IMG/VR virus record: IMGVR_UViG_2609459846_000012
Length of the DNA: 5,250 bases
From: a virus
Lineage: Duplodnaviria > Heunggongvirae > Uroviricota > Caudoviricetes
Direction: 5' to 3' (one strand)
The notes under the pieces are model-generated. The model had not been told where the DNA came from and searched no databases. It saw only the letters and a list, made by a program, of their open reading frames with translations. The position numbers were made by a program, and so were the translations under genes. Of this stretch, positions 2 through 5,250 are shown piece after piece (positions within the stretch are counted from its first letter, which is position 1; each line of letters opens with the position of its first letter).

Positions 2-169
2 ATACGTGAAAAAGAATGTCAGCAACTTACAGGCCTGAGCCGCTCATGTCGGTATCGCCTGGAGAAGACCGGACAATTCCCATCACGGCGTAAACTCGGC
101 GGTCGTTCCGTTGGCTGGTCTTTATCCGAAGTTCTGGCATGGAAGGACAGCCGCGAGGCAGTTCACTAA
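2..169 (+). CDS. alpA: AlpA-family prophage transcriptional regulator/excisionase, 5'-truncated by window edge
   Basis: Frame-2 translation IREKECQQLTGLSRSCRYRLEKTGQFPSRRKLGGRSVGWSLSEVLAWKDSREAVH* (stop at 167-169). The LTGLSRS..YRLEK.GQFP...LGGRSVGW motif is the helix-turn-helix signature of the AlpA/Phage_AlpA family as I recall it. Not in the ORF track because the start lies upstream of the window. Confidence 0.8.
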   Translation: MREKECQQLTGLSRSCRYRLEKTGQFPSRRKLGGRSVGWSLSEVLAWKDSREAVH

Positions 170-194: not shown

Positions 195-430
195 CCCATC
201 CACTAACACAGAGATCTAACCATGAATACTGGATATACGCCCGAACAGGGGCGGGGCTTCGTTCGTCCTGGTGAAACTAAAAAGCCATGTTATCGGGTAT
301 TTTCAGGCATAAAAAAAGCGGCCCCGATAAGGAACCGCCTTTCTGAACAATTAACCTGCTGCGAAAAAAATGGATCAGTGCAGGGGAATTATATCAACCG
401 TGTGGTGAAGCGCCACTATTGCCGGATAAC

Positions 431-463
431 AAGCAAAACAAAGGCGACCGCAAAAGGGTCGCC
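431..463 (-). terminator. Rho-independent terminator for the leftward RHH operon
   Basis: On the minus strand: GGCGACC-CTTTTGC-GGTCGCC (7-bp perfect GC-rich stem, 7-nt loop) followed directly by TTTGTTTTGCTT; lies 67 nt downstream of the minus-strand ORF ending at 530. Confidence 0.55.
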
Positions 464-529
464 AGTGGGAACAAGGGAAAACAAAAGCATCGCCAACAAT
501 GCCACATTTGCGGCTGGTGGGCAATGCAA

Positions 530-718
530 TCAGTCTGGTTCAGTTCGTTGCCATACCTGCAATGAGCGCTTTTCCCTGTACTCTTTAAGGAATTGCTCAA
601 GGGCAAAAGCACATGGCGCGAATCTTTCTGATTCATGCTCTATCTTTCTGCGCCGTCTTTTCCGTGTCGGTGATAATGTTTTGGTCAATTCTTTATCGGT
701 CATTGTGTTGTCCTGCAT
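530..718 (-). CDS. hypothetical small basic protein (57-62 aa), second gene of leftward operon
   Basis: ORF-track ORF MQDNTMTDKELTKTLSPTRKRRRRKIEHESERFAPCAFALEQFLKEYREKRSLQVWQRTEPD. The internal ATG (MTDKEL, position 703) has a better Shine-Dalgarno (AGGA, 7-nt spacer) than the first ATG. Followed by the intrinsic terminator. No recognisable family. Confidence 0.4.
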   Translation of the reverse strand: MQDNTMTDKELTKTLSPTRKRRRRKIEHESERFAPCAFALEQFLKEYREKRSLQVWQRTEPD

Positions 719-760
719 AGCAATGCGCCGTAATACCTTACACCACGGCGCTGGTGATGG

Positions 761-940
761 TTATTCCTGCTCTTTGGCCTTGCGACGCTGGCGGTATTCA
801 ACTTCTCGCTTTAATGCTGCTGTTACAAACTGCCCTGTACTTTCACCAGGCATTTTTACCGCCTCAACATTGTTCATAACTTCATGCGGAACCCTTGCCG
901 CAACTGTTTGTGATTTTGCGTTTACTGCTTTTGTTGCCAT
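761..940 (-). CDS. ribbon-helix-helix (CopG/Arc/MetJ-like) DNA-binding protein, 59 aa
   Basis: Hand-translated minus-strand ORF (below the ORF-track size cutoff): MATKAVNAKSQTVAARVPHEVMNNVEAVKMPGESTGQFVTAALKREVEYRQRRKAKEQE*. Predicted beta-strand (TVAARVPHEV), helix A, G-x-S/T turn (PGESTG), helix B fits the RHH fold pattern. SD-like AAGGGG about 7 nt upstream of the ATG. Divergent from the replication operon. Confidence 0.6.
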   Translation of the reverse strand: MATKAVNAKSQTVAARVPHEVMNNVEAVKMPGESTGQFVTAALKREVEYRQRRKAKEQE

Positions 941-989
941 GTTGTGTACCCCTTACAAAAAACAAATGCAGTATGCAGGAAAAAAAATA

Positions 990-1043
990 AGTGTTCAACA
1001 CTTGACGTGTTTAACACCAGAGCTTAAATTGGTGTTCAACACC
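990..1043. promoter_or_regulatory. divergent promoter/operator region with three palindromic operator-like sites
   Basis: AGTGTTCAACACT (990-1002), GTGTTTAACAC (1007-1017), GGTGTTCAACACC (1031-1043). Rightward sigma70-like promoter: -35 TTGACG (1002-1007), 17-bp spacer, -10 TAAATT (1025-1030). Leftward promoter candidate on the minus strand: -35 TTGAAC (within palindrome 1), 17-bp spacer, -10 CATACT (complement of 970-975). Confidence 0.5.
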
Positions 1044-1139
1044 TTACTGATGCAAGGTGCAGAAACGACGAAACCCGGCAGTGCGCTAACACTAACCGGG
1101 CTTCTAACCACCAACGATAGAAAGCGTATCGAGGTAGCT

Positions 1140-1346
1140 ATGAGAAATTATACCAGACACCCGCAAGGGCGGGACTCGTACAACCTGAATAAATACATCT
1201 GGCGTTTTATCGCCCTGAGCACGGCACAACCGCGCGTGATTACCATTGAGGCCACCAGCGAACAGGAAGCGCGTCAGCAATCTCCTGATGGCTGCGTGAT
1301 GGTATTCGCTGCCCGTATTCGTCAGGGGGTACGCCATGTGCAATAA
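1140..1346 (+). CDS. small phage protein, possibly Icd-like (host cell division inhibitor-like) family, 68 aa
   Basis: In-frame ATG inside the spurious 374-aa ORF with SD GAGG upstream: MRNYTRHPQGRDSYNLNKYIWRFIALSTAQPRVITIEATSEQEARQQSPDGCVMVFAARIRQGVRHVQ. The W.F.A....ATSE.EAR....V.VFAAR pattern matches my recollection of Icd-like small proteins annotated beside P4-family primases; the family call is from memory and unverified. Confidence 0.45.
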   Translation: MRNYTRHPQGRDSYNLNKYIWRFIALSTAQPRVITIEATSEQEARQQSPDGCVMVFAARIRQGVRHVQ

Positions 1347-1596
1347 CACCCGTCCGGACGCAGCCGCCGAAGCCATCAAAACGCTGATGCACGCGCTGAT
1401 TGATATTTCTGTTATCGCAGACAAGGCGCATAAGCGCGCCACCAGCGAAACAGAATATGCCGGGGCTTTCGTTCCTCACTCACTGGCTGTTATGCAACTT
1501 AGTGCGGATATGGCGCTGAATGAGGCTAAAGCCATCCTGATTGCTGATTGTGAAAATGGGGGGGGGTTATGCGTGATGATCGTTTTAATTCCCTGA
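1336..1596 (+). CDS. hypothetical protein, 86 aa
   Basis: ORF-track ORF; SD AGGGGG 6 nt upstream of the ATG; overlaps the previous ORF by 11 nt (translational coupling). C-terminus crosses a G9 homopolymer (1558-1566). Confidence 0.5.
   Translation: MCNNTRPDAAAEAIKTLMHALIDISVIADKAHKRATSETEYAGAFVPHSLAVMQLSADMALNEAKAILIADCENGGGLCVMIVLIP
1558..1566 (+). repeat. G9 homopolymer tract at the junction of two overlapping ORFs
   Basis: Nine consecutive G seen directly; encodes NGGG near the end of ORF 1336..1596 and acts as SD for ORF 1569..1802. Confidence 0.9.
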
Positions 1597-1802
1597 AACA
1601 GGAATTTTCCGGCGTTCCTGATGATGCGGCTGATGCGCTTTCGTCAATGCCAGAGCTTATTAGAGCGGCTTTTTTCTTACTTTCCACGAGAGAATATAAA
1701 TCAACGGGGCTTGATGTACTGAATATCGCCGCCGATTATGCGGAATATGTGGCAGAGGCGCGTTATAGAAGAAAATTTCCTGAGGATGTAAGCCATGCGT
1801 GA
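1569..1802 (+). CDS. hypothetical protein, 77 aa
   Basis: ORF-track ORF; the G9 tract immediately upstream serves as SD; overlaps the upstream ORF by 28 nt and the downstream ORF by 8 nt (ATGCGTGA). Confidence 0.5.
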   Translation: MRDDRFNSLKQEFSGVPDDAADALSSMPELIRAAFFLLSTREYKSTGLDVLNIAADYAEYVAEARYRRKFPEDVSHA

Positions 1803-2028
1803 TATTTACCACGAAACAATAGACCGCGCATTTCTTGCACTTTCTCACAGTGAAAACATGCTGGAAATATTGCGCATATGGCTTGAAACACTTGGCGACA
1901 ATGAACGCGACAAACAAAAATCAAGAATTGCCACGGCATTAATAACGCTTCTTGAGCCTGTAATAATGGAACTGCAAGAAATAGATCTATTGCACGACAG
2001 ATATAAAGAACAGCACACCGGAGAATAA
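1795..2028 (+). CDS. hypothetical protein, 77 aa, predicted mostly helical
   Basis: ORF-track ORF; SD GAGGA 8 nt upstream; start overlaps the upstream stop. Confidence 0.5.
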   Translation: MRDIYHETIDRAFLALSHSENMLEILRIWLETLGDNERDKQKSRIATALITLLEPVIMELQEIDLLHDRYKEQHTGE

Positions 2029-2033
2029 AAATA

Positions 2034-2333
2034 ATGAAACTTAAATATTCTGGCTTAACTGCCAGTGGCAACACTCACCCTAAATTTACGCGCGGCGATA
2101 TTTACCGCGACCAGTACGGCGGCACGGTAATGATTAAGGACGTGGAAGAACGGCGCGTAACCTACCGCCGTGAAGGTTACGAATATGATTGCGTGATGCC
2201 TGTTTATCAGTTCCGGCGTGATTTTTCTCTGGTACAGACCGCGCCGCATAACGTGTCCACCAGCAACGCCAGGGCACGGGCAAACATCCAGAAGCTGAAA
2301 ACCATGATTAACGGATTCAGGGGTAAAAAATGA
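2034..2333 (+). CDS. hypothetical protein, 99 aa, immediately upstream of and coupled to the replication gene
   Basis: ORF-track ORF; SD GGAGA upstream; stop overlaps the alpha-like start (ATGA). Occupies the position that epsilon/orf151 hold relative to alpha in P4 as I recall it, but no sequence support for homology. Confidence 0.55.
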   Translation: MKLKYSGLTASGNTHPKFTRGDIYRDQYGGTVMIKDVEERRVTYRREGYEYDCVMPVYQFRRDFSLVQTAPHNVSTSNARARANIQKLKTMINGFRGKK

Positions 2334-4144: not shown

Positions 4145-4158
4145 ACTTATGGAATAAC

Positions 4159-4386
4159 TGTTCACCACTGTTCACCCTGTTATAAATATCTTTTATATCA
4201 GTACATTATAGGGTGAACAGTTATTTGTGAACTGTTCACCAAACTATTCACTGTTCACCTTTTTGATTATTTATTGAGCTTTAAGGGTGAACAGTGGTGA
4301 ACAGTTGGTGAATAGTTTTTGTGAAACTGTTCACCCCTTAACATTATGAATAAAAAGGGAAAATATCAAAAGGTGAACAGGTGAAG
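4159..4386. repeat. origin of replication: iteron array of TGTTCACC octamers in both orientations, interspersed with AT-rich tracts
   Basis: Forward TGTTCACC at 4159, 4169, 4233, 4252, 4328; reverse GGTGAACA at 4212, 4286, 4296, 4372; degenerate copies at 4177, 4245, 4307, 4380. Adjacent copies are spaced 10 bp apart (4159/4169; 4286/4296). AT-rich stretches at 4177-4210, 4260-4284, 4336-4370, 4389-4418. The octamer is identical to the type I iteron bound by P4 alpha in ori and crr, as I recall it. Confidence 0.8.
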
Positions 4387-5135: not shown

Positions 5136-5250
5136 ATGACAACGCTGACCATTAACCGGAAGCCGAAAGGCATTTACGGCACGCCGCAGAAAACGACGCA
5201 GGCGGCGCAAGAGCAGGATAAAACCACATCGGCGCATAAAGTGATACCCG
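5136..5250 (+). CDS. hypothetical protein, 5' portion only (runs off window)
   Basis: ATG at 5136 preceded by GGGGGAAGG; open to window end (MTTLTINRKPKGIYGTPQKTTQAAQEQDKTTSAHKVIP...). Confidence 0.45.
   Translation, partial: MTTLTINRKPKGIYGTPQKTTQAAQEQDKTTSAHKVIP

Follow-up and report, generated by a model that had tools for sequence, protein, structure and literature searches.

A conserved, allele-shuffled block of small genes ahead of the replicase of a phage-inducible chromosomal island in Escherichia coli, and a possible gated route to replication

The question raised by this locus is why five small open reading frames (ORFs) are chained to the replication gene of a mobile element of Escherichia coli. 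They lie in a stretch of 5,250 nucleotides (the window) from the IMG/VR virus record IMGVR_UViG_2609459846_000012, which matches, at 100% identity, an island that is inserted between allE and allC in the chromosome of E. coli E203449. An earlier note, made from the sequence alone, had read them as uncharacterised early-operon cargo of a P4-like element, at a place where helper-manipulation or anti-phage effectors would be expected. The analysis favours, with moderate confidence, a different reading, in which the five ORFs come first after the promoter in the replication operon of a phage-inducible chromosomal island (PICI) and form a conserved and allele-shuffled backbone that stands behind a gated, translationally coupled route to the replicase. 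The locus is largely explained as known PICI backbone containing the regulator RgdR, and the P4 and cargo reading is not supported.

The layout drawn in the earlier note was confirmed at every junction, with overlaps of 11, 28 and 8 nucleotides (nt), a gap of 5 nt and an ATGA overlap with the replication gene (Table 1). Each start has its own purine-rich Shine-Dalgarno sequence (SD) 6-10 nt upstream (GAGGT, GGGGG, G9, GAGGA, GGAGA and AGGGG). The genes form a single rightward, tightly coupled operon that ends in a P4-alpha-like primase/helicase with the domains D5_N, DUF5906 and Pox_D5, and this primase/helicase is, judging by the ATGA overlap, translationally coupled to ORF5. The reading frames are also conserved. 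The order of the small genes is constant across 80 related loci from IMG/VR, and all five ORFs are under purifying selection. Substitutions pile up at third codon positions in ORF1 (94/90/181 by codon position) and in ORF4, which is the periodicity of coding sequence. All five ORFs are real genes. The block is present in 1742 of the 5426 complete E. coli genomes and is covered to at least 80% in 710.

Variable cargo was not what the comparison revealed. The block is syntenic in all related loci and stands ahead of different replicases; a RepA-family helicase follows it in classic PICIs such as that of strain E2865 and the O157:H7 island between roxA and phoQ (O-island 51). Because it stands before a primase in some islands and before a RepA helicase in others, the block is a conserved module of the backbone. 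Several alleles exist of each small gene; they reassort independently of each other and of the replicase type, and recombination at conserved gene junctions shuffles the alleles of the block. Between successive small genes, a recurrent cassette, (C/T)ATGCGTGAT, was observed at the junctions (window 1793-1802 and 1567-1577; L057 3133-3151), in which the upstream stop TGA sits within the downstream ATG CGT GA. This cassette is probably the recombination and coupling joint for allele shuffling. Paralogy of ORF3 with ORF4, and of ORF2 with ORF4, was considered on the basis of length (77 aa) and MRD starts and was rejected, as no similarity was found; ORF3 and ORF4 have the MRD start in common because of the conserved ATGCGTGA junction cassette and not because of homology.

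By its gene content, the element is a capsid-forming PICI and not a P4-like satellite. The order in the source locus (L001) is int, alpA, the small-gene block, primase, a small ORF, single-stranded DNA-binding protein (SSB), ProQ/FinO, major capsid, prohead protease, portal, head-tail connector, HNH, TerS and TerL, on an island of about 15 kb (features 11237-25326) for which the annotation lists no tail or lysis genes. The integrase is annotated at one end of the island and is followed by alpA in the same orientation. The island has its own primase/replicase and then an iteron origin, and both terminase subunits are annotated together with the capsid, protease, portal, connector and HNH genes. 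The iteron word GGTGAACAG matches the window 14 times where 0.95 matches are expected, and ten of the 14 lie within the origin. A capsid-forming PICI gene set of this type has been described for EcCIEDL933 (10.1101/2022.09.08.507074). AlpA is the PICI activator (PMC6092414) and is induced by the helper (PMC6092414; PMC11773190). In the published description, AlpA is treated as the sole PICI regulator, and the repressor is termed 'unclear' (PMC6092414). The suggestion that O-island 51 is also a capsid-forming PICI was rejected, since this O157:H7 island carries RepA, PerC, capsid, decoration and TerS genes and is of the classic PICI kind.

The description 'uncharacterised' stood for ORF2, ORF3 and ORF4, which have no assigned function, but fell for ORF5. 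Judged from its sequence, which is 94% identical to C1493 of strain CFT073, ORF5 is an orthologue of RgdR, a published global regulator of LEE (locus of enterocyte effacement), motility and curli. Both ECs1581/RgdR and C1493 act as activators of LEE1 and type III secretion and as repressors of motility (Flockhart et al., PMC3378721). Residue 20 of RgdR matters, its DNA binding is non-specific, and its effects on LEE and motility occur in uninduced cells (PMC3378721). RgdR is encoded by all analysed E. coli PICIs (Fillol-Salom et al., PMC6092414). A consensus promoter with an extended -10 (TTAATA-N17-tgAATAAT) is located at 1939-1967 on the + strand, inside ORF4 and 67 nt upstream of ORF5, and this candidate could explain RgdR activity in uninduced cells. 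The AlphaFold2 (AF2) model of ORF5, with a predicted local distance difference test score (pLDDT) of 76 overall and about 90 at residues 21-70, forms a five-stranded small barrel followed by a basic helix. A fold search with this model returned generic KOW/Tudor/SH3-like matches only, and no function in binding RNA polymerase is claimed. Sequence searches of ORF1, ORF4, ORF5 and the ORF2-3 fusion against PDB chains gave nothing below an E value of 0.7.

The position of ORF5 also invites a reading in which the block is a replication-accessory module. In that case the small proteins, RgdR/DUF4222 foremost, would help to load or regulate the replicase at the iterons of the origin, and the published action of RgdR on host transcription would be a by-product of a replication factor that binds DNA or RNA polymerase. 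ORF5 overlaps the start of the replicase by ATGA, be it Pri or RepA, and in phage SfIV and the K-12 prophage e14 a DUF4222 ORF sits immediately upstream of the replication gene and overlaps it. The non-specific DNA binding reported for RgdR (PMC3378721) and the modelled barrel with its basic helix also suit such a role. Even with these points, the replication-accessory reading is considered unlikely.

Some observations on DUF4222 stand apart from this comparison. An unannotated DUF4222 ORF (Pfam about 1e-19) occupies an alternative frame in the 3' half of ymfM, which is annotated as a 'cell division inhibitor' (L084 3502-3681). It corresponds to positions 1204001-1204180 of E. coli K-12 NC_000913.3, in prophage e14. 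Because this ORF is embedded in ymfM, the filamentation ascribed to ymfM might stem from either frame. YmfM itself was rejected as a relative of RgdR, as the tblastn match falls in another frame of ymfM. Phage SfIV likewise has an unannotated DUF4222 ORF overlapping the start of its replication gene (L086 3438-3659).

The cargo reading of the earlier note holds that the small proteins derepress or manipulate the helper prophage, as P4 epsilon does, or that they are anti-phage effectors. The genes do lie upstream of an alpha-like primase in an induced operon, ORF1 to ORF4 are without known function, the many diverged alleles per gene are what an arms race would predict, and helper interference has been reported for PICIs (PMC6092414). 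However, the P4 setting on which this reading was built was not borne out. The P4 alpha-type primase model TIGR01613 scored 96 bits, below the family cut-off of 108.7, and no P4 match was found for the whole block as DNA or for ORF1 and ORF5 as proteins. A tblastn search of ORF1 against 50,697 phage records matched a single satellite-like record, the C4/CI family was absent from the Rfam scan matches, and none of epsilon, sid, psu and delta is annotated in the source locus. PICIs and P4 have been argued to have independent origins, with only distant similarity of Int, AlpA and Pri-Rep in common (Fillol-Salom et al., PMC6092414). The block is no variable hotspot but a fixed backbone, and a PADLOC scan of all ten window proteins matched no defence model or family. 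Nothing was found in support of an epsilon-like manipulation of the helper; the prototype capsid-forming PICI leaves its helper unblocked (10.1101/2022.09.08.507074), and the published role of ORF5 is directed at the host (PMC3378721). Together, these results leave the cargo reading distinctly improbable.

The 28-nt overlap between ORF2 and ORF3 arises from a +2 expansion of the G run at 1558-1566, which is G9 in the window; in E2865, the junction is G7 and a single 154-aa protein results. These comparisons show that ORF2 and ORF3, a single gene in many relatives, are the halves of one two-part gene, here in one of three common states. Across the loci, runs of 4, 7 and 10 nt keep the halves in frame and fused, and runs of 8, 9 and 11 nt split them, while the interrupted 8-nt tracts GGGGTGGG and GGGGGTGG keep the halves split for good. 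Run length differs even between sequences that agree over 225 nt on each side of it, a frame-changing length polymorphism between otherwise identical alleles, as expected of a phase-variable homopolymer. Exact-sequence counts of one N-terminal allele placed the fused G7 form on at least 1000 contigs, G8 on 547 and G9 on 179, and at least 1000 contigs encode the exact 77-aa ORF3 protein. When complete genomes were sampled at even spacing, about 19 were G7, 15 G8 and 6 G9. All three assemblies of NCTC86 and both of ATCC 25922 are G8, and because these independent assemblies agree, the variation is not simply sequencing error.

Both halves remain intact in the split alleles, and the split is probably tolerated. 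ORF2 stands alone in L057, L061 and L063, and in some islands the halves are separate genes with a 127-aa gene in between; there an ordinary SD, made of G6 and a spacer of 5 nt, precedes the second half. With G8, the stop codon of the first half falls within ATGCGTGA, the same stop/start cassette as at the ORF3/ORF4 joint. The junction DNA is the best conserved part of the two-part gene, with pairwise identity of 0.93-0.98 against 0.45-0.85 further out. It is highly improbable that the split is a homopolymer sequencing error or a frameshifted pseudogene without regulatory meaning: some platforms do misread the length of homopolymers, a CM-series assembly is among the matches of the window and fused G7 is the commonest form, but against this stand the concurring G8 assemblies, the interrupted tracts, the hundreds of contigs with split forms of one allele, the purifying selection on two intact halves, their occurrence as genes set apart by another, and the stop and restart of the G8 form in a coupling cassette. 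Whether RefSeq lists one hypothetical protein or two for the two-part gene depends on the G run. For the fused protein, the AF2 model is all-helical with pLDDT 55, from a shallow, E. coli-only alignment, and is too poor for a fold search. A scan of species-representative genomes for the two-part gene matched only E. ruysiae and S. flexneri.

The gate proposed ahead of this operon rests on three features between alpA and ORF1. The first is a predicted rightward promoter bracketed by three palindromes, next to a leftward unit headed by a YlcI/YnfO-family gene (Table 1), which has a strong SD in every allele. The GTGTTNAACAC palindromes are confined to loci with a YlcI allele at least 97% identical to that of the window. 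More than 20 YlcI-like alleles were found, each with its own repeated box at the same three positions, and TTGAC is kept at the same promoter position in other alleles. The boxes do not track the alleles of AlpA (L053, L019), the 62-aa ORF (L003, L024) or ORF1 (L071). Because they co-vary with the YlcI allele and not with these three, the pattern is that of a repressor and its operators. The palindromes and the YlcI/YnfO-family gene look like the repressor/operator 'immunity' region of a Gram-negative PICI, and occupied boxes would, by their position, shut the rightward promoter.

The second feature, a candidate gene for a structured antisense RNA, is suggested to cover the ribosome-binding site of ORF1. 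An extended -10 (TGgTATAAT) at 1155-1147, inside codons 3-6 of ORF1, would start the RNA beside the ORF1 ATG. The Rfam model symR (RF01809) matches it end to end, but the 32.8 bits (E 0.002) fall short of the gathering score of 61, and the RNA is termed SymR-like, not SymR. Its predicted position agrees with that of SymR, as it is cis-antisense to the target 5' untranslated region (UTR) and SD, starts within the first codons and forms two hairpins. Covariation across 15 alleles supports the fold: over its 25 pairs, standard pairs make up 98.1% of pair cells, compensatory changes are present in 8 pairs, none of 500 shuffles reaches this, and shifted registers collapse. Read on the + strand, the same pairs are only 83.2% paired because 57 G-U cells turn into C-A, and the minimum free energy is -35.1 kcal/mol for the minus strand versus -20.8 for the plus strand. 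The ProQ/FinO-family chaperone of the island is a possible partner of the antisense RNA.

The third feature is a stop-free frame that runs from alpA into ORF1; it spans 374 codons at 222-1346, and ORF1 forms its 3' end. This frame is antisense to the two leftward genes, the terminator, the promoter and operators and the antisense-RNA gene. Among 33 distinct alpA-ORF1 intervals, the ORF1 frame has 0-1 stops in 26, compared with 8-28 in each other + frame, and openness by chance was rejected on these counts. An ordinary protein encoded by 222-1346 was not supported either. No third-position excess was found at 222-440 or 941-1139, and no Pfam family matched the frame. Codon periodicity is thus missing outside the leftward genes, and the frame stays open although no protein sequence is conserved in it. 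The distant relative vB_KppS-Ant has the same layout, and its long ORF starts by an ATGA overlap onto the upstream gene. The stop-free frame may be a translational bridge from alpA transcripts.

Taken together, the three upstream features suggest that the route to the replicase is gated and translationally coupled. While the island rests, the YlcI-like protein would repress the rightward promoter and the antisense RNA would block the translation of ORF1; because the ORFs are serially coupled, this block would silence the downstream ORFs and the replicase as well. When a helper phage switches on alpA, transcripts would arrive from the alpA side, and ribosomes would cross the stop-free bridge into ORF1, past the blocked SD, and then pass along the coupled chain up to the primase. 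Translation of the bridge would avoid Rho polarity and would run antisense to the repressor genes. The bridge ORF would be unconstrained in sequence; its role would lie in being translated, which would take ribosomes from alpA transcripts over the antisense repressor cassette, and not in its product. The poly-G tracts would fuse, split or truncate small effector genes from cell to cell. The small proteins probably act on the host; Icd-like ORF1 may inhibit division, and ORF2/3 and ORF4 are predicted to be small helical proteins. As a whole, an undescribed induction switch of enterobacterial PICIs, composed of an allele-specific YlcI/YnfO repressor with its operators, a SymR-like lock, a stop-free bridge ORF and poly-G contingency tracts, is put forward only tentatively.

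Several points weigh against the gated reading. The antisense RNA and the operon promoters are predictions, and the symR match stays below the Rfam gathering score. Operator co-variation cannot formally separate the YlcI-like protein from other products of the same diverged DNA, including the + strand frame. In the seven of the 33 alpA-ORF1 intervals that have insertions, the ORF1 frame is not open, and openness is partly expected inside the leftward genes because the frame there is a 'shadow' frame. RgdR acts in uninduced cells, so that ORF5 must be expressed without full induction, for which the promoter within ORF4 is a candidate. The model of the ORF2-3 fusion is also poor.

Further observations concern the single genes. 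The tentative Icd-like call for ORF1 proved correct by the NF033153 model; the name derives from Icd of phage P1. RefSeq calls the Icd-like gene inconsistently, at 68 or 135 aa (L001 13800-14207 and 13083-13620; L090 7706-8299), and lists pieces of the upstream stop-free frame as pseudogenes, 'Icd-like, incomplete'. In a homologue search with ORF4, the best 120 of 528 matches were all at least 92% identical. In some loci, the ORF4 slot is taken by another allele with its own variable G run, in which G8 gives 69 aa and G7 and G9 truncate the product to 47 and 52 aa. The first approximately 125 residues of the primase (2330-2704) are 62% identical to the N-terminus of the RepA-family helicase of other PICIs (phrog_2850), and because of this identity the Pri and RepA replicase types have an N-terminal domain in common.

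Table 1. Positions of the features discussed, in window coordinates unless a locus is named. For ORF1 to ORF5, dN/dS is the pairwise sum of nonsynonymous (dN) over the pairwise sum of synonymous (dS) divergence.
Feature	Position	Strand	Evidence or remark
alpA, 3' part, AlpA-family regulator	2-169	+	full gene in L001: Pfam Phage_AlpA PF05930, 2.7e-18; annotated helix-turn-helix regulator
Stop-free frame continuous with ORF1	207-1139	+	first ATG 222; ORF listed as 222-1346
Terminator-like hairpin ending the leftward unit	443-463	-	GGCGACC...GGTCGCC then TTTGTTTT
62-aa ORF, second gene of the leftward unit	530-718	-	phrog_21027; dN/dS 0.33
YlcI/YnfO-family gene, 59 aa, candidate allele-specific repressor	761-940	-	NF041551 2.1e-16, 59.7 bits against cut-off 30; dN/dS 0.29
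Operator palindromes GTGTTNAACAC (candidate)	991-1001, 1007-1017, 1032-1042		3 exact copies; 0 of 200 shuffles reach 3
Sigma-70-like promoter TTGACG-N17-TAAATT (predicted)	1002-1030	+	consensus match only
Candidate cis-antisense small RNA, SymR-like	1055-1139	-	two hairpins and U-rich tail; complementary to ORF1 5'UTR and SD
ORF1, Icd-like, 68 aa from ATG at 1140	1140-1346	+	NF033153 1e-19, 70.3 bits (70 rounded) against cut-off 25; phrog_6196; dN/dS 0.27
ORF2, 86 aa, N-terminal half (helical hairpin)	1336-1596	+	phrog_2512 positions 1-77 of 154; ends in out-of-frame 10-residue tail; dN/dS 0.24
G9 homopolymer	1558-1566	+	sets ORF2/ORF3 frame relation; SD of ORF3
ORF3, 77 aa from own ATG, C-terminal half	1569-1802	+	phrog_2512 positions 78-154; dN/dS 0.20
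ORF4, 77 aa	1795-2028	+	phrog_2196 (no known function); dN/dS 0.25
ORF5, RgdR orthologue, 99 aa	2034-2333	+	DUF4222 PF13973, 8.3e-24, 83.3 bits against cut-off 27; RGD at residues 20-22; dN/dS 0.35
Primase/helicase (pri-rep), 604 aa	2330-4144	+	D5_N, DUF5906, Pox_D5; phrog_864 5e-193
Replication origin iterons, 10 x GGTGAACAG	4158-4380		both orientations, one with a single mismatch; AT-rich stretch after primase
ProQ/FinO-family RNA chaperone just after SSB	5136-5250, continues in L001 17997-18527		PF04352, 4.6e-24
Alternative ORF4-slot G run	L071 3602, L020 3890, L076 3809, L018 3517		

PICIs, which are widespread, drive gene transfer and virulence in E. coli, and the block is present in about a third of complete genomes. 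The silencing of Gram-negative PICIs and their turn-on by AlpA are still described as unclear; the repressor/operator pair, the antisense RNA and the bridge would, if true, give an answer, and no published description of this upstream switch was found. A gated switch, if true, would explain why the small genes are chained to the replicase. It would also place RgdR, a known virulence regulator, in a gated operon and link satellite induction to the control of LEE and motility. In roughly half of genomes, the two-part gene is counted as two hypothetical proteins, which matters for annotation and possibly for population heterogeneity.

The locus can finally be set beside known systems. It resembles PICIs of the EcCICFT073 type and the capsid-forming EcCIEDL933 type in int, alpA, the small genes including rgdR, pri-rep, the iteron origin and the packaging genes. 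It differs in the leftward YlcI/YnfO-family gene with co-varying operators, the antisense RNA and the stop-free bridge frame, of which no mention was found in the published descriptions consulted. The P4 left operon (epsilon, orf151, alpha) also has small genes ahead of a primase/helicase, and the C-terminal region of the present primase is of the P4 family; the sub-threshold TIGR01613 score, the lack of P4 matches for the block, ORF1 and ORF5, and the lack of annotated sid, psu and delta separate the two. ORF5 agrees with RgdR (ECs1581, O-island 51, E. coli O157:H7) in its 99 aa, DUF4222, RGD at residues 20-22 and position before the replicase, and differs from it at residues 10 and 45 (A10, R45); the host strain of the island may also lack a LEE.

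The candidate antisense RNA resembles SymR of SymR/SymE, a type I module of E. coli K-12, where an RNA of about 77 nt is antisense to the 5'UTR and SD from the first codons and forms two hairpins; the inter-hairpin UUAG and the GUGUU..GCGCAC loop are also alike. It differs in its sub-threshold score, in its target, which is Icd-like and not SymE/AbrB-like, and in its setting at the head of a replication operon. Homopolymer contingency loci of Neisseria and Haemophilus undergo phase variation by slipped-strand mispairing. As in these loci, a coding G run whose length differs between otherwise identical sequences switches the reading frame, and a second tract lies in the alternative ORF4 allele; in contrast to them, the 'off' frames of ORF2/3 turn a fusion into two coupled genes and do not abolish the gene. 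In the c4/icd/ant genes of the P1 immI operon and in CopA/tap/repA of plasmid R1, a small RNA blocks a short leader gene to which the downstream genes are translationally coupled. By analogy, the arrangement proposed here would be an RNA-gated short leader gene, of the Icd family in this case, with coupled genes behind it. The c4 RNA of P1 is a same-strand RNA that acts in trans on short sites, whereas the candidate RNA here would be cis-antisense, and the coupled chain is five genes long. In R1, the gated gene is the replication initiator, as is proposed for this island.

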